From a virus (taxonomy: Duplodnaviria > Heunggongvirae > Uroviricota > Caudoviricetes), in IMG/VR virus record IMGVR_UViG_2541047806_000003, positions 1-55,921 of that record: a stretch of DNA of 55,921 nt. One strand, written 5' to 3'. Shown here piece after piece: positions 36,234 through 52,187 of the stretch. The notes beneath the pieces are model-generated. The model saw nothing but the letters and a program-made list of their open reading frames with translations, did not search any database and was not told the DNA's origin. Numbering within the stretch: position 1 is the stretch's first letter; each line of letters begins with the position of its first letter. A program made the position numbers and the translations under genes.

Positions 36234-36956
36234 TTATTCACCCCGTGTCACTCGTTTAATTTCGTTATCAGCCCGCGCCTCTTCTTTGAACAATTCAGTA
36301 ATGGCGTCTTCATAGAAAGCACGGTATTTCTTCCACCACGTTGATCGGCTTACCGGAAATACAAGCTGATTAACCGCACGCCGGACAAGATCTACAGGGA
36401 AACGCGAGTACCCGCGCCCGCCGCAATGCTGGCACGTTTTGAACACTGGCATTTCCGCTGCTTCACTGGCTGCTTTATCCGGTATCTCGCCGCGCCCTTT
36501 GCATCGTTTACAATGATTGAGAACTTTTCCATGCCCCTTGCATTTTTTGCAAAGGTGTTTTTCTCCGTAGTCGTCAAACGTAAATTTATATCCGCCGCAA
36601 TCCATACAAGTTTTTTCTGTCGCGGCACTCTGGCAGTAATCCCGAAACGCGAAAACGGCAACAAGAATAATAAGATCATTGCGTTTGTCCTCGTCCAGCT
36701 CCATGACGTATTCGTAATCTTTTGCCATAGCTCTTAAACGCTCTGTAAGCAAAACTACGGCCCTGTGTTTTTCGGCTTGCGATAGTTCCATCTTCCCTAA
36801 AAAAGCGCTATAACCAAGCTCTACGCGCGATTGCGCCATACCTGCTGCGGTTAGTGCATCAGTAGTATTAAGCGAGTCTGGGGACGTGCCCCGGCTTTCA
36901 TCTGACAAACGCGGTGATTTTGGGAGGTGGAATTTAAGAATAGATTCCAAATTCAT
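36234..36956 (-). CDS. Q-like late-gene regulator candidate with DnaJ-type zinc finger (four CxxCxGxG-like repeats)
   Basis: 240 aa; CMDCGG, CKKCKGHG, CKRCKGRG, CQHCGGRG; sits after rusA/ninG as Q does in lambdoid phages. Confidence 0.45.
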   Translation of the reverse strand: MNLESILKFHLPKSPRLSDESRGTSPDSLNTTDALTAAGMAQSRVELGYSAFLGKMELSQAEKHRAVVLLTERLRAMAKDYEYVMELDEDKRNDLIILVAVFAFRDYCQSAATEKTCMDCGGYKFTFDDYGEKHLCKKCKGHGKVLNHCKRCKGRGEIPDKAASEAAEMPVFKTCQHCGGRGYSRFPVDLVRRAVNQLVFPVSRSTWWKKYRAFYEDAITELFKEEARADNEIKRVTRGE

Positions 36957-44055: not shown

Positions 44056-44460
44056 TCAAAACGGGATATCGTCATCAAAGTCCATCGGCGGATTATTCCC
44101 GTTATTATTCTGCTGCTGCGGAGGCGCTTTCTGCTGCTGGCCTTGTTGGTTAACGTTCATGAATTCAAATTCGTTAACCGCCACTTCTACCGCCGTTCCC
44201 TTCGTGCCGTCGTTCCGGTCATATTGCCGAACATCCAGGCGACCGCTTACCACTATTTTTCCACCCTTGCGGATATGTGGCGCTAATTTTTCCGCACGCT
44301 CACCAAATACCAGGCAAGTGACCCACATTGTCCGCTTATTATCGCCGTAGCCATTCGTTACAGCTAACGGAAAACTACCAATCGCTTTCCCGTTTTGTGT
44401 GTAGCGAACCTCCATATCATTACCGATATTCCCGCCCAGCGTGATTGAATTTAAACTCAT
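44056..44460 (-). CDS. ssb: Single-stranded DNA-binding protein
   Basis: 134 aa; Gln/Asn-rich linker and acidic tail DFDDDIPF. Confidence 0.85.
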   Translation of the reverse strand: MSLNSITLGGNIGNDMEVRYTQNGKAIGSFPLAVTNGYGDNKRTMWVTCLVFGERAEKLAPHIRKGGKIVVSGRLDVRQYDRNDGTKGTAVEVAVNEFEFMNVNQQGQQQKAPPQQQNNNGNNPPMDFDDDIPF

Positions 44461-45104
44461 TAACCCATCTCCCCGTTAAGCTCTGCTACCCGGATGTCAT
44501 AAACATCTTTTGCCTTGATTCGATGTTCCGATCCTTCCGGTAGTAATTTCCAGCATTTGCCAAATATTTCACGCAGCTTGTTAGCGTCCTGCGCTTTCGC
44601 TGCTGCATCACAGAAACGTGCTAATACTTCATCAGGATTTGGCGGCGCTTTCTGCTGCTGTGGTTGTTGTTTTGGTGGGTTTTTCTGCTGGCGAGGCTGC
44701 TGGCCTGTCTGCTTAGCGTATGCGTCAGTATCAGGATCTCGCGCATCATCAATGCAGAATAAACCGTTCAAAGCATATTTTCGCGCGTAACTTGATGTCG
44801 CACCTGTTAGCTGGCTTGCGTCCATTCCCTTCTTGCTTTCTTCTTCCCTGGCGTAAGCCGTTACCGCTATTTCGTCTTCACCGTCGCTTAGCGTCGCCGT
44901 AGCTTTCACATAATAGCGATTGCCGATCAGGACAATTTCATCGCTTACAGTCAGCGTAATACTTTGAAGCAGTGGTTTAACCGCCTCTAAAATATCCTCC
45001 GCCGACCTGTAATTATATCCACCAAAATTATTACGCTGATTTTTCGGCGCGTTCAGCGTTTGCTGAATCGTCCATAGCTTTTTATGTAACTCTGTTTTCA
45101 CCAT
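44460..45104 (-). CDS. Erf-family single-strand annealing protein
   Basis: 214 aa; FGGYNYRSAEDILEAVKPLL typical of Erf family; adjacent to ssb. Confidence 0.75.
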   Translation of the reverse strand: MVKTELHKKLWTIQQTLNAPKNQRNNFGGYNYRSAEDILEAVKPLLQSITLTVSDEIVLIGNRYYVKATATLSDGEDEIAVTAYAREEESKKGMDASQLTGATSSYARKYALNGLFCIDDARDPDTDAYAKQTGQQPRQQKNPPKQQPQQQKAPPNPDEVLARFCDAAAKAQDANKLREIFGKCWKLLPEGSEHRIKAKDVYDIRVAELNGEMG

Positions 45105-46689: not shown

Positions 46690-46994
46690 GTCGCTACCCT
46701 ATAACCTCAAAAAGTTTGATGCAAGTCACAAAACGTGTATTTTAAGCCTTGATCTTAAAATTCCATTTTGTAAACTTGCAGACAAGGTAAGGCCATACTT
46801 GCAAAGACGCAAGGAAAAAGATAACGGAAGGCACAAAAAGGCACTTACCTTAAGCTCTTTAAAAATCCGGTGTCGCTGCGAAGCGAAAAACAAATATCAC
46901 GCAACGGCGGGATCTGTTGAGCGGTCAGTCACTGCTATCTAATGCTAATGGGATGCCCGCCCGCGCGTTCACTCTAACCATAGGAGAAAACACG
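46690..46994. promoter_or_regulatory. Divergent repressor/early promoter-operator region
   Basis: Intergenic; inverted repeats CTTGC-N6-GCAAG (ACTTGCAAAGACGCAAGG) and CTTGCAGACAAG; CCATTTTGTA motif at 46763. Confidence 0.4.
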
Positions 46995-47252
46995 ATGAGT
47001 ATGCACATGATGAATGAAGTATGGAACGTAAAACTTAACAGCCCGATTCAAAAACTTGTCTTAATGGCTCTGGCTGAAAAGGCAGATAACAAAGGACGGG
47101 TACATGATGCATCACGCAAAGAAGTAGCCGCAATGTGTGAACTTCCTGTTCATACGGTACATGATGCCTTCGCCGCGTTAATGGATAAAGGATTTGTTTG
47201 TCGTCTTGATGCATTCAGTGATGTCTATGTAGTGATGTTGCCGGAGGGATGA
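46995..47252 (+). CDS. Winged-helix DNA-binding protein at Cro/CII position
   Basis: 85 aa from ATG 46995 (SD AGGAG); KLVLMALAEKADNKGRVHDASRKEVAAMCELPVHTV resembles HTH of replication-initiator-type proteins. Confidence 0.45.
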   Translation: MSMHMMNEVWNVKLNSPIQKLVLMALAEKADNKGRVHDASRKEVAAMCELPVHTVHDAFAALMDKGFVCRLDAFSDVYVVMLPEG

Positions 47253-47255
47253 TCT

Positions 47256-48308
47256 ATGAAGTGGTTTAAGCATGACAGCGATGCGAACCGCGATGAAAAA
47301 CTTCAAAACGTTTTGTTAGATTATGGCCTGGAAGGGTACGGGCTTTATTGGTATTGCCTAGAACTAATAACTTATGACGTAGATCAGCACAATCTAACTT
47401 TTGACCTACGACATGACGCAAGAATAATTGCGCGAAACGTCGGATCTACTGAAAAACGTATAGAAGAAATGATGAAATACTTCATCGAAATTGGTTTGTT
47501 TGAATGTTCTCAAGGCCACATAACTTGTTTAAAGTTATTGAAAAGGCTGGACCAATCAATGACTTCTAAAAGCGCTTACAGGGCCGCCATAAACACAGCG
47601 AAGGAGCAATTAAAATTAGAAAAGTTAATCAATCCAACACAAAAAGGTCATGATAGGGTCATGACCGGGTCAGGAAAGGGTCATGAATTAGAATTAGAAG
47701 TAGAAAAAGAAAGAGAAAAAGATATATACACTTCGTGTATTGTCGAAAATGAACAAAAAATGGTCAATCAGGATGGCGTAAACGAAGCGGCATTGCGTTG
47801 CCTTGCCTTCTACAACGACAAGGCAGGATGCAAATGTCGTGATGCTAAGCCATTCGTAGAACTACTGACAGAAACAAAAACACGTAAAGCGTATACGGAG
47901 AATGAGATCACGTTAGTAATTGAGTGGGCTTTAACCCAATGGCGTAGCCGTGGTGGAGTACCTAAGCCTATCAACATTTGCCGGGTAACTAAGTTTGATG
48001 GGTATTTGGCTGATGCTGAACAATGGCGCAAGCTATCAGTTACTGTAAACGCTGCCGACGTGGTGGAAGCATTTAACAGCACGTTTGACGGCCTGTTACC
48101 ACCTGCCGAACTGGATCGGGATCTTGAACGCAAGATCTATGCGTTCACTGACTACCTGAAAGACAAAAGCATTAACGGCTTTGTCGCCTACTTCGAAACG
48201 TTCAAAAACACGGCTTCAGATTTTTACTTCGGCAATGGCTTCACTGCGACACTTGATTTCCTGCTTAAACCAAAAACGCTACGTGATACTCGCGCGGGCG
48301 CTCTTTGA
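47256..48308 (+). CDS. Replication initiation / replisome organiser protein (DnaD-like N-terminal domain)
   Basis: 350 aa; N-terminus MKWFKHDSDANRDEKLQNVLLDYGLEGYGLYWYCLELI matches phage replisome-organiser pattern. Confidence 0.7.
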   Translation: MKWFKHDSDANRDEKLQNVLLDYGLEGYGLYWYCLELITYDVDQHNLTFDLRHDARIIARNVGSTEKRIEEMMKYFIEIGLFECSQGHITCLKLLKRLDQSMTSKSAYRAAINTAKEQLKLEKLINPTQKGHDRVMTGSGKGHELELEVEKEREKDIYTSCIVENEQKMVNQDGVNEAALRCLAFYNDKAGCKCRDAKPFVELLTETKTRKAYTENEITLVIEWALTQWRSRGGVPKPINICRVTKFDGYLADAEQWRKLSVTVNAADVVEAFNSTFDGLLPPAELDRDLERKIYAFTDYLKDKSINGFVAYFETFKNTASDFYFGNGFTATLDFLLKPKTLRDTRAGAL

Positions 48309-48683: not shown

Positions 48684-49595
48684 ATGTGTAAGTTAACACA
48701 TGAGGAACATGTTGCCGCTATTGCGAAAGTTAATCCTGATGTTGAAGTGCTGGGGAAAATTATTAATAGCAAAACAAAAGTATTATGCCGCTGCAGAGTT
48801 TGCGATCATGAGTGGTCGCCTAGACCTACCGACCTAAAATACGGGAAAGGCTGCCCGAAATGTTCTGGTCACACAAAGTTGTCGCATGAAGAACATGTTA
48901 AGGCTATTGCGAAAGTTAATCCTGATGTTGAAGTGCTGGGAGAAATAACGAACGTCGATATAAAAGTATTATGCCGCTGCAAAGTTTGTAATCATGAGTG
49001 GTTGCCGCGGCCTAGCTTTCTTAAACGGGGGAGTGGCTGCCCGAAATGTCGCGGTGGTAGTGATAGACTGTCACACGAGGAACAAGTCACGGATATTGCT
49101 AAGGTTAATCATGATATTGAAGTACTAGGGAGAATTACAGGCAGCCTGAAAAAAGTATTGTGCCGCTGCAAAGTTTGTGGCCATAAAAGGATGTGTACAC
49201 CCCACAACCTTAAGCGCGGCGACGGCTGTCCAAAATGCGCAAAATACGGCTTTCTTCGTCATGAGCGCGGTAAACTTTACATCATGACTGACGATCTGGA
49301 AGTGCCTACACAAATGAAAATTGGTGTAAGCGTTAAGGAGAACGAGCGAAGAAATGAAATATTAAAAAGCGCACATAAAGCAGGTGTTAGAATTCCTGAT
49401 TTGCATATCGTGAAAACGTTAGAAGGGCCAACTGAAAATATCCATGAATTAGAAAGCACGATGCATAAGGCTTTTAGCAATTATAAAATTAACTTCCCTG
49501 TAAAATTTGATGGTAGTAATGAGTTTTTCTATTACAGGCCGGAAGTATTCGACATGGTAGAAGAAGCATATAAAGAGATTGTTTGCTGTCAATGA
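48684..49595 (+). CDS. T5orf172/GIY-YIG-like domain protein with three N-terminal zinc-ribbon repeats (possible free-standing homing endonuclease)
   Basis: 303 aa; three repeats of about 62 aa each with CRCxVC...GCPKC; C-terminal GKLYIMTDD...KIGVS...GSNEFF. Confidence 0.5.
   Translation: MCKLTHEEHVAAIAKVNPDVEVLGKIINSKTKVLCRCRVCDHEWSPRPTDLKYGKGCPKCSGHTKLSHEEHVKAIAKVNPDVEVLGEITNVDIKVLCRCKVCNHEWLPRPSFLKRGSGCPKCRGGSDRLSHEEQVTDIAKVNHDIEVLGRITGSLKKVLCRCKVCGHKRMCTPHNLKRGDGCPKCAKYGFLRHERGKLYIMTDDLEVPTQMKIGVSVKENERRNEILKSAHKAGVRIPDLHIVKTLEGPTENIHELESTMHKAFSNYKINFPVKFDGSNEFFYYRPEVFDMVEEAYKEIVCCQ
48693..49253. repeat. Three tandem repeats of about 186 bp inside ORF 48684-49595
   Basis: Near-identical stretches such as GCTATTGCGAAAGTTAATCCTGATGTTGAAGTGCTGGG and GTATTATGCCGCTGCA-AGTTTG recur. 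Confidence 0.6.
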
Positions 49596-49628
49596 ATATA
49601 CAAAATGTATACCGGAGGATATAACATT

Positions 49629-50747
49629 ATGTGTCAAAGAAAGATTAGTGATGAACAGCTAATCACTGAACATAACAACGGTCTAACGTATAAACAGATC
49701 GCCGAAAAGTACGGAATGGCAAAACGCAACGTCGAACGGCTGGGCGCACGGTTGGCGAAACGCGGTTTAATATCCACGCGCCGCGCTCCTGGTTTTGGCG
49801 TCAATGCTGAGTCATTGCTCGTCGATAAGGATGGCAATGTGATTATGCGCTGGATTAAAACAGCCCGTGACCGCGATGAAATGGAAATGCTAATGCAATC
49901 GGCTTGTGATGCTTTCACGGAAGAGATACCACGCGCGGAGGCCGTGCCAGTGCCGGAAATTGATTTTCAAAAAAGCCTGGCCCTTTATCCGGTATTCGAT
50001 CTGCATATCGGGGCGCTTGCTCATAAAGCTGAATGCGGTGAGAGCTACGACACCGGGATCGCTGAACGCGTGCTAAATGACTTCTTCGACTACGCGGTAG
50101 GCGCTGCGCCAATGTCTGAAAAGGCTGTTTTGCTTCTCGGCGGTGATGTGCTTCACACTGACGGCCTGTTACCAGTGACGCCATCAAGTAATCACGTTTT
50201 AGATTGTGATTCACGCTACGCAAAACTGGTTTATGTGGCGATCCGGTCGGTCCGGCGTGCGGTCGGGAAGATGTTACTAAATCATAAGGATGTCGAGATC
50301 CAGGTATTATCCGGTAATCACGACCAATCAGGTATGATTTGGCTACGTGCTGCGCTGGCGGCTTTTTACGAAGATGAACCGCGTGTGACGGTTGATGTGT
50401 CACCTGCTATCGTCCATCACACACAGTACGGCAAAACATTTCTTGCTTACCACCACGGGCACACTATCAAAAAGCCAGAAAATTTACTTTCTGCCTGCGT
50501 TTCTGACTGGCGGGAGGATTTCGGCAAGTCGTCGTCTGTTTACGCTCATTGTGGACACTGGCATCACCAACGGCTGATTGAATCATCGTTGGGCGTTGTT
50601 GAGTACCACGGCACGTTAGCTGGCAAAGACGCTTATTCAACGAATGGCGGCTGGCGGTCGCGGCGGCTGGCTGCGGTAATAATTTACAGTCCTGATCATG
50701 GGGAAATCGGGCGCTTTGTTTATTACCCTGAATATTCCATTTTGTAA
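49629..50747 (+). CDS. HTH-containing calcineurin-like metallophosphoesterase
   Basis: 372 aa from ATG 49629 (SD GGAGGA); motifs DLHIG, GGDVLH, GNHD, HHGH, GHWHH; N-terminal HTH (LTYKQIAEKYGMAKRNVERL). Confidence 0.55.
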   Translation: MCQRKISDEQLITEHNNGLTYKQIAEKYGMAKRNVERLGARLAKRGLISTRRAPGFGVNAESLLVDKDGNVIMRWIKTARDRDEMEMLMQSACDAFTEEIPRAEAVPVPEIDFQKSLALYPVFDLHIGALAHKAECGESYDTGIAERVLNDFFDYAVGAAPMSEKAVLLLGGDVLHTDGLLPVTPSSNHVLDCDSRYAKLVYVAIRSVRRAVGKMLLNHKDVEIQVLSGNHDQSGMIWLRAALAAFYEDEPRVTVDVSPAIVHHTQYGKTFLAYHHGHTIKKPENLLSACVSDWREDFGKSSSVYAHCGHWHHQRLIESSLGVVEYHGTLAGKDAYSTNGGWRSRRLAAVIIYSPDHGEIGRFVYYPEYSIL

Positions 50748-50765
50748 ACCGGAGGCGATGCCATA

Positions 50766-52187
50766 ATGATAACCGAACAAGTAAACTCATTGCGGCAAGA
50801 AAGAGAATCAGCGGTTATCGGTGGCCTGCTGTTAGGTGGGCTTACTCCTAACGCGCAAGATGTTCTCGCTACGCTTGATCCTGAAGTGTTCACTATTCCG
50901 CTGTATAAGCGGGCTTTTGAAATTATCCGGGCGCAAGCCAGAAACAGAAATCTTATCGACGCCTTGCTGGTTGGTGATGAGATTGGCAACGAAAATTTTG
51001 TACCGCTGATGCAAACGGCGCGATCGTGTCCTTCTGCTGCCAATCTGAAAGGATATGCGCGACTACTACAGGAAGAACACCAGCGGCGGCAAATGCTGGA
51101 ACTAATGGAAGACATTCGCTACAAACTGGAAACGGGGACGCTTGAAGTCGTCAGGGAGACGATGAAAGATTTTGATTCCCGGTATTCAAAATTAAAGGTA
51201 ACAAAAGATCAAATTATCCCGGTGCTGTTGCGCGATGCGGTCCAGGAATACACGGAAGTGTTAAGTAAACGCATGGAGTGTGGCGTGAACTCTGACAACA
51301 TCAAAACAGGGATTGACCCACTCGACGAAATGTTAGGCGGCATTAACGCTACTGATCTGGTGCTTATCGCCGGACGCCCAGGGTCTGGTAAATCGGCGTT
51401 GGCGTTGGCAATTGCCCGCGCGGCGGCTGAACGTCCATACCCTGGCGGCGAAGGTCAGCGGGTCGGCGTTTTGCTGTTCACGCTTGAAATGTCGCTCGAT
51501 CAGATGACTGAACGTGCTATCGCTGGCGCTGGGAACTTATCAACGGATTGCCTACGTAATCCGGTAAAACTGGATGACGAAGGTTGGGCGCACGTCGCCC
51601 AGGGAATGAGTGCCCTTGCCGATCTCGATGTGTGGATTGTTGACGCATCGCAGTTAACGGTTGAGGAAATACGCGCCACCGTCGAACGGATGAAACAGGA
51701 CCATCCTAATCTTGGAATGGTGATGATTGACTACATCGGTTTAATGAAACTGGCTAAGGCCGAACGTCATGATCTCGCCGTAGGGCAATTGTCGTGGTCA
51801 TTGAAAATGATGGCGAAAGAGTTGCGCGTGCCAGTGGCGGCACTGGCGCAATTATCCCGCCGCGTTGAGGAACGACCGAACAAGCGCCCGAACAATTCTG
51901 ATCTGCGTGATTCCGGTAATCTTGAACAGGACGCAGACCGGATCATCATGGTCTACCGCGACGGCTACTACAACGAACAATCGGTTGCCCGCGAATATAT
52001 GGAGATCATCGTTTCAAAAAACCGTCACGGGAAAACGGGGACTGTTTACCAGCGGTTTGACGATAACGGCAACATCATCCCATGCAACCAGGCCCGCGCG
52101 GCGTCCGCTTGCATTCAGTCAATGCAACAACGTCCGGCGGCAAGTCGATTCTCCCCACGAAACAGCCAGAGCAACGCATCTTTTTAA
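50766..52187 (+). CDS. Replicative DNA helicase (DnaB-like)
   Basis: 473 aa; Walker A GRPGSGKS, Walker B-like MVMIDYIG, C-terminal RecA-like fold motifs. Confidence 0.85.
   Translation: MITEQVNSLRQERESAVIGGLLLGGLTPNAQDVLATLDPEVFTIPLYKRAFEIIRAQARNRNLIDALLVGDEIGNENFVPLMQTARSCPSAANLKGYARLLQEEHQRRQMLELMEDIRYKLETGTLEVVRETMKDFDSRYSKLKVTKDQIIPVLLRDAVQEYTEVLSKRMECGVNSDNIKTGIDPLDEMLGGINATDLVLIAGRPGSGKSALALAIARAAAERPYPGGEGQRVGVLLFTLEMSLDQMTERAIAGAGNLSTDCLRNPVKLDDEGWAHVAQGMSALADLDVWIVDASQLTVEEIRATVERMKQDHPNLGMVMIDYIGLMKLAKAERHDLAVGQLSWSLKMMAKELRVPVAALAQLSRRVEERPNKRPNNSDLRDSGNLEQDADRIIMVYRDGYYNEQSVAREYMEIIVSKNRHGKTGTVYQRFDDNGNIIPCNQARAASACIQSMQQRPAASRFSPRNSQSNASF

Follow-up and report, generated by a model that had tools for sequence, protein, structure and literature searches.

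The gene at positions 49629-50747 on the plus strand of the window, the 55,921-nucleotide stretch of phage DNA analysed here, encodes a helix-turn-helix (HTH) domain fused to a metallophosphoesterase (MPE), and its product is probably, judging from its sequence, an active metal phosphoesterase of the nuclease type. We give about an even chance to the reading that this HTH-MPE protein is a DNA-tethered, Mn-dependent nuclease of phage DNA metabolism. We infer DNA as its substrate, nuclease activity and a biological role from the intact metal site, the constraint on both domains, a sequence profile that reaches nuclease MPEs, and a context of DNA- and nucleotide-metabolism genes. A nuclease also fits best among the options offered by the sequence-only reading, which had allowed for either a nuclease or a phosphodiesterase; the signal-nucleotide and defence roles that it listed are not supported. 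In the mechanism that we propose, the basic HTH, of the sigma-r4/GerE type, would tether the protein to DNA via a flexible linker and so direct a stand-alone binuclear-metal (probably Mn2+) phosphodiesterase to DNA. The MPE core, of the structural type of Mre11/SbcD and the PolD DP1 proofreading exonuclease, would then cut DNA phosphodiester bonds. Its most likely role would be DNA breakdown or processing in lytic growth, and may take the form of host-chromosome degradation that feeds nucleotide salvage or of end and intermediate trimming in replication and recombination. Counted against this reading, temperate phages do not usually destroy the DNA of their host, and a mechanism for sparing the phage's own DNA is not evident in these data. 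The HTH could also serve regulation or protein binding instead of substrate tethering.

The enclosing open reading frame spans 49605-50747 (plus strand). We prefer the ATG at 49629 as the start because a Shine-Dalgarno sequence (GGAGGA, 49614-49619, plus strand, read directly from the sequence) lies 9 nt upstream, and because the resulting length of 372 amino acids plus a stop codon is typical of close homologues, which have 370-380 aa. The coordinates proposed earlier from the sequence alone therefore correspond to the complete gene including its stop codon. The DnaB gene downstream starts in the same ACCGGAGG Shine-Dalgarno context. Promoter, terminator and base-composition scans around the gene returned nothing notable except the lower GC of an inserted GIY-YIG endonuclease gene. 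Two minus-strand ORFs lie within the gene, at 49634-49918 and 49915-50403, and are assumed to be spurious because the plus-strand frame is strongly constrained.

The AF2 model of the protein has a pLDDT of 93.6. Together with the family profiles, it places a three-helix HTH of the sigma-70 region 4/GerE type at aa 8-44 (49650-49760), within a basic N-terminal region (residues 1-55, pI 10.4). The HTH of the window protein falls below Pfam thresholds (E about 0.01); across the 64 members of the family alignment, Sigma70_r4_2 is matched in 11 (best E 1.5e-9, Pfam) and GerE in four (best E 2.4e-8), and the family profile matches a GerE structure at E 0.006. The linker that follows (aa 45-55, 49761-49793) has reduced model confidence, with a pLDDT of 82 for aa 41-50 and 69 for aa 51-60 in 10-residue blocks, and is variable in length across the family, with long insertions in some members (columns 100-200 of the 64-sequence alignment). 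The alignment and the model then define a family-specific long beta-hairpin (aa 56-80, consensus VKGxSTLYDxDGxxxxQWVKT) and a helix (aa 82-97), together covering 49794-49919. The hairpin seems to be doubled in a few relatives, as in the P0128 alignment row, where two stretches are matched. The MPE core occupies aa 113-365 (49965-50723), as delimited by motifs, alignment and model, and has the MPE alpha/beta sandwich fold. No extra recognisable domain was found in the longer family members (424-479 aa).

All five calcineurin-like MPE motifs (DxH, GD, GNH(D/E), H and GHxH) are present in order and can be read from the sequence on the plus strand. These are motif I, VFDLHIG (VFD124LH126IG, 49992-50012); motif II, GGDVLHTD (GGD173VLH176, 50139-50162); motif III, SGNHD (SGN230H231D232, 50310-50324); motif IV, YHHGH (YHH276GH, 50448-50462); and motif V, CGHWHH (CGH310WH312H, 50550-50567). 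The alignment adds a family-specific VTPxSxHxLDxDxR element at 50175-50216. Across the 64 aligned sequences, which are 30-71% identical to the window protein, residues D124, H126, G172, D173, N230, H231, H276, G277, G309 and H312 are invariant, and H310, D232 and H176 are conserved in at least 90%. Loss of metal ligands in close homologues was looked for, and the ligands are retained in the copies of the mEp021 group apart from one H126Y among 32 unique sequences. The ratio dN/dS is 0.066 overall, 0.045 for the HTH region (aa 1-55) and 0.059 for the MPE core, and strong purifying selection acts on both domains. The fusion of an HTH to a calcineurin-like MPE, first proposed from the letters alone, is thus borne out by the intact conserved metal site, the five ordered motifs and the three-helix HTH of the AF2 model. 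The family is nevertheless too divergent for the Pfam MPE models: the window protein has no Metallophos or Metallophos_2 match at E < 0.1 and does not reach the gathering score, and weak Metallophos-type matches occur in only 13 of the 64 relatives (best E 5.8e-5). As a result of this divergence, some records are misnamed, for example as 'Rrf2 family regulator'.

Comparison with known structures places the protein nearest to nucleases. The nearest folds to the AF2 model are those of the PolD DP1 exonuclease, which is the best match, and SbcD/Mre11. Cyclic-nucleotide phosphodiesterases rank only slightly below, with Rv0805 (a class III cNMP phosphodiesterase), GpdQ and Ap4A hydrolase-type MPEs close behind the nucleases, and Ser/Thr phosphatases rank far lower. 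When the MPE-domain profile was compared with all PDB sequences, the only MPEs reached were T. maritima Mre11/SbcD (E 0.004) and a P. putida 'Nuclease MPE'. The alignment to Mre11/SbcD covers motifs I and II, comprising DxHxG and the Mre11-type GDxxH (GDLLH), and the histidine of the latter (H176) is invariant in one family alignment as well as at least 90% conserved in the other (the 64 sequences). The nuclease-domain motifs of Mre11/SbcD, including the motif II GDxxH, are therefore present in HTH-MPE, but the capping domain and the C-terminal Rad50/SbcC-binding region are absent, the N-terminal HTH and hairpin are not found in Mre11/SbcD, and sequence identity is about 14-17%. No gene for a Rad50/SbcC-type ATPase was found among the scanned window ORFs or beside the MPE in 13 annotated phage contexts. 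About 211 residues of PolD DP1 align to HTH-MPE at 14% identity (10-14% for DP1 and B-subunits overall). The OB domain of DP1 and the polymerase B-subunits is unrecognised in HTH-MPE, the phage is without a DP2 partner, and the window ORFs scanned include no polymerase gene; we treat the resemblance to DP1 as limited to the MPE core. Lambda NinI (lambda-PP), a phosphatase of the PPP type, shares the superfamily fold and is also phage-encoded, but the PPP signatures GDxHG, GDxVDRG and GNHE are absent from HTH-MPE and PPP structures rank low, in agreement with the earlier statement that this is not a NinI-type Ser/Thr phosphatase.

The protein belongs to PHROG 704 ("DNA repair exonuclease"), whose profile it matches over its full length (E 7.1e-138, residues 4-368 against profile positions 2-387 of 390). 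Its homologues, present in 2,044 phage records and in 4,336 clusters at 50% identity, already carry GenBank names such as putative phosphoesterase, metallophosphoesterase, calcineurin-like phosphoesterase and DNA repair exonuclease, so that the rarity implied by the sequence-only reading does not hold. Members are encoded by T1-like phages (Drexlerviridae) and by Jersey-like, Dhillonvirus, Webervirus, Casjensviridae, Vibrio and other phages, and share with the window protein the HTH-hairpin-MPE architecture, the length and the invariant residues. Identity to T1-like versions is 57-71% (71% to that of the T1-like phage ST44). It differs from other PHROG 704 proteins only by location, in the initiator-DnaB operon of a temperate phage of the mEp021 group. 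Of 522 Drexlerviridae genomes, 508 have an exonuclease-holin-endolysin-spanin module to which this gene belongs, and where the SH3 gene is missing the exonuclease is most often followed by PNK or dNMP kinase (PMC13164509, 2026). Among phage proteins that lack an assigned function, this family is one of the more widespread, and the Drexlerviridae include many Klebsiella, Escherichia and Salmonella phages. Knowing whether its members serve host DNA destruction, processing of replication intermediates or another function would improve the annotation of thousands of genomes, and would be relevant to the biology of phage-host takeover and to therapeutic phage engineering. The window instance adds little new to this picture, its one particular feature being a lineage-specific tight pairing with DnaB. 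That pairing offers a genetically tractable temperate-phage setting, with mEp021 and its relatives on E. coli K-12.

Our literature search found no biochemical or genetic work on any member of the HTH-MPE family, and the mEpimmI genomics paper does not discuss the gene. A phage Tn-seq preprint covers unrelated phages, and the Metis paper is about T4 and T6 denA. In phage phiJLA23 the match covers only residues 1-91, but we set this aside as a sign of non-essentiality: the translation is interrupted by a stretch of ambiguous bases, which we read as a gap in the assembly and not as a truncated gene. Two stand-alone phage MPEs have been tied experimentally to destruction of the host chromosome, and we cite them as analogies only. 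T5 A1, a putative metallophosphatase resembling double-strand-break-repair and proofreading nucleases, is both required and sufficient for the degradation of host DNA (bioRxiv 10.64898/2026.04.02.716235), and gp48 of mycobacteriophage A10ZJ24 is a protein with phosphodiesterase activity that damages the integrity of the host genome (PMC12287305). T5 A1 belongs to a different family, phrog_1745, and homology to HTH-MPE was not detectable, with an hhalign probability of 7% over 21 columns, in which only an NHD...S.WL patch aligned. A10ZJ24 gp48 appears to be without the N-terminal HTH extension (its motif I is at D10) and is likened to HTH-MPE by description, not by sequence.

In the window, the gene stands in a replication operon. 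A replication initiator encoded by two plus-strand ORFs lies upstream at 46917-48308, with the N-terminal winged-HTH part at 46917-47252 and a Lin1244_N/O-like part at 47256-48308. Four GGGTCATGA-like iterons with 11-nt spacing lie inside the initiator (47646-47686) and form a candidate origin, as judged from the sequence. A plus-strand gene for a free-standing homing-type endonuclease of 303 aa (48684-49595), with three zinc-ribbon modules and a T5orf172/GIY-YIG-like domain, occupies the variable interval that separates initiator from MPE; the closest relative, MagusPhagus, lacks it. The gene for the DnaB-family replicative helicase (50766-52187, plus strand) starts about 20 nt after the MPE stop codon in the same operon, and we present it as context, not as a partner. 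The description of the gene as lying between initiator and helicase thus holds on the DnaB side, which is directly downstream, but not on the other, where the endonuclease gene separates it from the initiator. The MPE is directly upstream of DnaB in all 43 mEp021-group loci examined, with a gap of 19-22 nt that widens to about 550 nt at loci with an inserted HNH gene; the distance from initiator to MPE varies from 399 to 1901 nt.

These observations raise the alternative that the protein is a replisome accessory of the phage DnaB, serving either to load the helicase or as its adaptor, or else as an exonuclease that works physically with it at the fork or in primer processing; by analogy, PolD DP1 and the eukaryotic polymerase B-subunits would be its models as replisome components with an MPE fold. 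The invariant placement 5' of DnaB, the shared Shine-Dalgarno context, and the best structural match to an exonuclease subunit of a replicative polymerase are all in its favour. So are ST44, where the MPE follows a DUF3987 helicase and lies beside a primase, an SNF2 helicase, a RecE-like protein, Erf and SSB, and JustaPhage, where it follows the primase gene. We nevertheless consider this alternative unlikely. No DnaB-type helicase was found in flanks of ~3-8 kb on either side of about 55 T1-like and other loci, and in other lineages the MPE precedes the lysis cassette, follows the endolysin, stands between lysis and terminase genes, or lies among tail genes but on the opposite strand. The DnaB link is thus confined to the mEp021 prophage group, which removes much of the significance first attached to the position. 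In prophage L018, an MPE allele of 58% identity stands beside a DnaB of 96.8% identity, which we count against co-evolution of the two. The B-subunits are inactivated, whereas the catalytic residues of HTH-MPE are invariant. No similarity to lambda P, DnaC/IstB-like or other loader families was found in PHROGs, Pfam or NCBIfam, consistent with the initial view that the protein is not an obvious helicase loader. The varied genomic contexts and the exchange of the MPE allele beside an almost unchanged DnaB make a dedicated loader unlikely, and we rejected it as the main reading for these reasons. The gene is best explained as a self-contained cassette of phage DNA metabolism that can be exchanged horizontally. 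In addition to the loci above, the gene order is MPE-PNK-dNMP kinase in Yersinia phage 531 and MPE-nucleotidase-dNMP kinase in a Thermus phage. The T1-like SNF2 helicase and the MPE have a similar host distribution, which may simply reflect shared phage lineages.

Less probable again is an anti-defence phosphodiesterase that degrades immune signal nucleotides (of CBASS, Pycsar, Thoeris or type III CRISPR) or other small nucleotides. The closeness of Rv0805, GpdQ and Ap4A hydrolase-type MPEs to the nucleases in fold searches would fit such an enzyme, as would the movement of the gene as a cassette between unrelated phages: the AG11 and JL1 copies are 75% identical yet at quite different genomic positions, and those of the window and ST44 are 71% identical. 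The sequence profile, however, reaches only nuclease MPEs in the PDB, and the neighbours are genes of DNA and nucleotide metabolism and not anti-defence clusters. Known signal-degrading anti-defence genes tend to be more patchily distributed, whereas this gene persists in synteny as part of the core of whole phage families, as in the Drexlerviridae module. Retention of a DNA-binding-type HTH in most members, under very strong purifying selection, further argues against the signal-nucleotide degradation that had been put forward. A defence role fares no better: the PADLOC defence models give only a chance-level match (E 0.024), and a scan of 185,579 species with one genome each, which detects close relatives only, returned two loci.

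Lower still is the probability of an end-healing enzyme that removes 2',3'-cyclic or 3'-phosphates and cooperates with polynucleotide kinase in the repair of RNA or DNA that host nucleases have cut. PNK is encoded directly downstream in Yersinia phage 531 and frequently in Drexlerviridae, and in bacterial Pnkp (Clostridium thermocellum) end-healing is carried out by MPE domains. Very doubtful, too, is a virus-encoded counterpart of PolD DP1 or the B-subunits, in which an active MPE exonuclease would ride with the helicase at the fork and carry out proofreading or primer/3'-end processing for a hijacked host polymerase. If true, it would explain the ~20-nt coupling to DnaB in the mEp021 group and the helicase and primase neighbours in some T1-like phages and Jedunavirus.

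It is highly improbable that the protein is a transcriptional regulator or protein phosphatase whose HTH controls late or lysis genes and whose MPE modifies a protein target. Its HTH is of a regulator type (sigma-70 r4/GerE) and the Drexlerviridae gene lies directly upstream of the lysis cassette, as Q does in lambda; however, the mEp021-type phage has its own Q-like antiterminator (36234-36956) and carries the MPE in its early replication operon, placement with respect to late genes differs between phages, and the absent PPP signatures and low-ranking PPP structures speak against a phosphatase. A selfish homing-type nuclease without benefit to the phage is barely credible: the layout of HTH, flexible linker and nuclease resembles I-TevI, genomic positions vary, near-identical alleles occur in unrelated phages and genuine homing endonuclease genes cluster around the MPE, but a homing gene would be expected to show sporadic distribution and frequent decay, and this one shows a dN/dS of 0.066 and a uniform presence, since almost every member of large phage families, and each of the 43 mEp021-group loci, has it at a fixed syntenic position.

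The metallophosphoesterase (MPE) gene lies in an open frame spanning 49605–50747 on the + strand, with its ATG at 49629 (ORF scan of the window). Because this start has a GGAGGA Shine-Dalgarno sequence on its 5' side (49614–49619, read from the sequence) and yields a 372 aa product, as long as the closest homologues, the sequence-only reading had placed the gene exactly, at 49629–50747. All five MPE motifs that it proposed are present in canonical order on direct reading of the protein: VFD124-L-H126-IG, GGD173-VL-H176, SGN230-H231-D232, YHH276-GH and CGH310-W-H312-H for motifs I to V. The HTH fused to the MPE domain is also real, despite a weak Pfam score in the window protein (E about 0.01, several HTH families). 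Among 64 aligned relatives, 11 match Sigma70_r4_2 (best E 1.5e-9) and four match GerE (best E 2.4e-8); the family profile reaches a GerE structure at E 0.006, and AlphaFold2 (AF2) predicts the helices. Residues 1–55 have a pI of 10.4. The MPE and DnaB genes have a common ribosome-binding context, ACCGGAGG followed by 10–11 nt and then ATG (49607–49631 and 50748–50768).

The window protein belongs to a very large family that already has a name, and is an ordinary member of it: it matches phrog_704 ("DNA repair exonuclease") over its full length at E 7e-138, 2,044 of the 50,697 phage records searched by tblastn contain homologues, and 4,336 clusters (E <= 1e-3; 909 at E <= 1e-30) were found when 1.84 billion cluster representatives were searched exhaustively with HMMER. 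The gene is thus far less rare than was first implied. Pfam, NCBIfam, PADLOC and direct PDB sequence search left the catalytic domain unplaced. The tblastn records come from phages of Escherichia (560), Klebsiella (468), Salmonella (373), Vibrio (254), Campylobacter (60), Flavobacterium, Rhodobacter, Ruegeria, Thermus, Microcystis and others, with labels varying between "DNA repair exonuclease", "phosphoesterase", "metallophosphoesterase" and "hypothetical". Among the HMMER matches listed, relatives are typically 370–420 aa, which points to a common architecture, and no extra recognisable domain was found in longer members. No experimental characterisation of the family was found in the literature searched. 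A seemingly truncated 110-aa "DNA repair exonuclease" in phage phiJLA23 (L104 3001–3333) is taken as an assembly gap rather than a natural deletion, because ambiguous bases interrupt its frame where it stops. Copies that are short or split also occur in BFVD, from Salmonella phage 36, Jk06 and RDJL Phi 1.

The gene is functional and strongly constrained. For 32 unique copies out of 37 of the same length in the mEp021 group (483 pairs), the median dS is 0.60 and the median dN/dS 0.066, with values of 0.045 for the HTH (aa 1–55), 0.13 for residues 56–110 and 0.059 for the MPE core. Catalytic residues are retained in these copies save for one H126Y change in motif I (an IMG/VR copy among L023–L059), which from its sequence may be an inactive allele. 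Across the 64-sequence alignment, D124, H126, G128, G172, D173, N230, H231, H276, G277, G309 and H312 are invariant, and conservation is at least 90% for H310, D232 and H176. With the metal ligands kept to this degree, a check for their loss in close homologues, named at the outset as counting against the assignment, came out negative. The alignment also contains an invariant family signature between motifs II and III, VT184P-x-S-x-H-x-LD192-x-D194-x-R196, and a conserved hairpin motif N-terminal to the core, VKGxSTLYDxDGxxxxQWVKT.

The AF2 model, built from the same alignment, has a mean pLDDT of 93.6 and a pTM of 0.83. It comprises a three-helix HTH (residues 8–44), a lower-confidence linker (45–55), a long beta-hairpin (56–80), a helix (82–97) and the MPE sandwich (113–365). 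In structure comparison the model scores highest against the PolD DP1 proofreading exonuclease (16.1 over 211 residues), followed by SbcD and Mre11 (both 14.9; further Mre11 structures about 13.4), MJ0936 (14.0), LpxH (13.4), the Pol delta B-subunit (12.9), YfcE (12.7), Rv0805 (12.5) and GpdQ (12.3). Foldseek agrees, with DP1 and T. maritima Mre11 leading at E about 1e-7 and Rv0805 close behind. When a profile of the MPE domain only was run against all PDB sequences, the only MPE proteins reached were T. maritima Mre11/SbcD (E 0.004) and the P. putida "Nuclease MPE" (E 0.37), and its alignment covers DxHxG and the Mre11-style GDxxH. In Mre11, the histidine of motif II (Pfu H52) participates in nuclease chemistry. 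The protein is nevertheless not an Mre11/SbcD orthologue, because the model has no capping domain and no Rad50/SbcC partner gene was found among the window phage ORFs scanned or in the other phage contexts examined. The protein represents a distinct MPE clade; its closest kin, by a modest margin, are proteins that act on DNA.

The gene lies directly upstream of DnaB in all 43 mEp021-group loci sampled from GenBank and IMG/VR, at a distance of 19–22 nt, which grows to about 550 nt where an HNH endonuclease gene is inserted. The interval to the initiator varies from 399 to 1901 nt, with variable cargo that includes the window endonuclease. Outside this group, no DnaB homologue was found within roughly 3–8 kb on each side in about 55 loci, so that the position had been given too much meaning. 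In T1-like phages the gene comes after Dam methylase and small ORFs, with holin/endolysin/spanin directly behind it (haarsle), or follows a DUF3987 helicase and adjoins primase, SNF2 helicase, a RecE-like protein, Erf and SSB (ST44). It sits in a three-gene opposite-strand cassette within the tail genes of Jersey-like AG11 (L003 4609–6358) and between lysis genes and terS/terL in Dhillonvirus JL1 (L013 3992–5134); these two proteins are 75% identical at unrelated genome positions. Elsewhere it is found in the orders MPE-PNK-dNMP kinase-portal (Yersinia phage 531) and MPE-nucleotidase-dNMP kinase (Thermus phage Lalka27a), after holin/endolysin (Rhodobacter RcPescado), between endolysin genes and adjoining an HNH gene (Vibrio phage 98E28-3), and downstream of primase (Jedunavirus JustaPhage). 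The cassette moves between phages. Comparison of the window (49629–52187) with the otherwise near-identical prophage L018 (6001–9081) gives 58% identity for the MPE beside 96.8% for DnaB and 93% for the initiator, and the virulent T1-like phage ST44 has an MPE 71% identical to that of the window; these alleles point to exchange between temperate and virulent phages. Variable position and allele exchange speak against a loader that is dedicated to the helicase and co-evolved with it, and the first impression that the protein is not a recognisable loader holds. The contexts favour a self-contained module, usually carried along with genes of DNA and nucleotide metabolism. In record counts by host genus, the T1-like SNF2 helicase, whose gene adjoins a VRR-NUC gene, nearly equals the MPE (Klebsiella 469 vs 461, Vibrio 266 vs 254, Campylobacter 20 vs 21); shared inheritance within lineages could explain this, as could a functional link.

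A DNA-tethered, metal-dependent nuclease is the best-supported reading, and the nuclease option is favoured among those first proposed; we put the chance that the protein is a nuclease on DNA at about even. We infer its substrate, its activity and its biological role. The basic HTH and flexible linker would hold an Mre11/DP1-type core on DNA, and the recurrent PNK, dNMP kinase and nucleotidase neighbours fit a part in DNA breakdown and nucleotide supply; where the gene lies among those for replication and recombination, processing of ends or intermediates would fit equally well. In mycobacteriophage A10ZJ24, the phosphodiesterase gp48 disrupts the integrity of the host genome and acts in counter-defence (PMC12287305). 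For T5 A1, a putative metallophosphatase described as similar to DSB-repair and proofreading nucleases, degradation of host DNA requires the protein, which also suffices for it (bioRxiv 10.64898/2026.04.02.716235). Both are phage precedents for stand-alone MPEs attacking host DNA, and serve as analogies only; A1 (phrog_1745) aligns to the family with an hhalign probability of 7%.

An accessory of DnaB in the replisome would suit the mEp021-group pairing, and is unlikely given how that pairing is lost elsewhere. Degradation of signal nucleotides, one of the roles first proposed, is somewhat less likely still, as the constrained HTH and the core-gene behaviour disfavour it; gene families of the exonuclease-holin-endolysin-spanin module, which includes this one and was detected in 508 of 522 Drexlerviridae genomes, are classed as persistent (PMC13164509). 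End healing together with PNK would match the Yersinia phage 531 order, and is improbable. A replisome exonuclease that resembles DP1 and is coupled to the helicase draws on the top structural match and the DnaB pairing; it would be of interest if true, and we hold it to be a little more doubtful again. A regulator or protein phosphatase could use the HTH, and is highly improbable; PPP Ser/Thr phosphatases score only 8.5–9.1 against the model, which bears out the initial view that the protein is not NinI-type. Least credible of all is a selfish homing-type nuclease, for which the neighbouring insertions speak and the constraint on the gene does not. Ubiquity and constraint make the family a worthwhile target, to which the window adds only a tractable temperate-phage setting and the lineage-specific pairing with DnaB.

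The window represents a temperate coliphage, complete, from the mEp021 ("mEpimmI") group, with 95% identity in the MPE region to MagusPhagus and about 87% to mEp515, mEp013, mEp554, mEp044 and mEp010. It encodes integrase, cI, Erf, SSB, methyltransferases, NinG, RusA, a Q-like protein, and lysis and structural genes. The Erf-like annealing protein and SSB lie in a leftward operon (44056–45104, - strand), and no exonuclease partner was recognised among the ORFs scanned, which omit some small ORFs. A 481-aa ORF at the window edge (1–1446, + strand) has no PHROG match and may be host flank beside the tail-fibre end of the prophage. The initiator is split into two adjacent ORFs, a wHTH N-terminal part (46917–47252, phrog_4617) and a Lin1244_N/O-like part (47256–48308), as annotated in MagusPhagus, mEp021 and prophage L018. 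Within the second, four GGGTCATGA-like iterons with 11-nt spacing (47646–47686) are flanked by AT-rich AATTAAAATTAGAA repeats (47608–47621 and 47686–47699); by its sequence, this region is a probable replication origin lying within the initiator gene, as in lambda O.

The proposed placement between initiator and helicase is right on one side, with DnaB (50766–52187) about 20 nt downstream; on the other, a free-standing homing-type endonuclease of 303 aa (48684–49595, + strand) separates the initiator from the MPE gene. Both flanks are homing-endonuclease hot spots, since the initiator-MPE interval and the MPE-DnaB spacer (50748–50765) both carry insertions. The spacer is about 550 nt in L001, L018, L020, L056, L057 and L059, and those of them that have gene calls, four in number (mEp515, mEp021, L018 and another), contain an HNH endonuclease gene there. 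The window endonuclease has three zinc-ribbon (DUF4379/CapR-like) modules and a C-terminal T5orf172/GIY-YIG-like domain. Its modules are encoded by three tandem 174-nt repeats (48690–49238), the second and third being 80% and 69% identical to the first, and the GC content of the gene is below that of its neighbours. The gene is missing in the closest relative, MagusPhagus, is full, partial or absent across the 43 related loci, and in mEp021 encodes a larger version of 495 aa.
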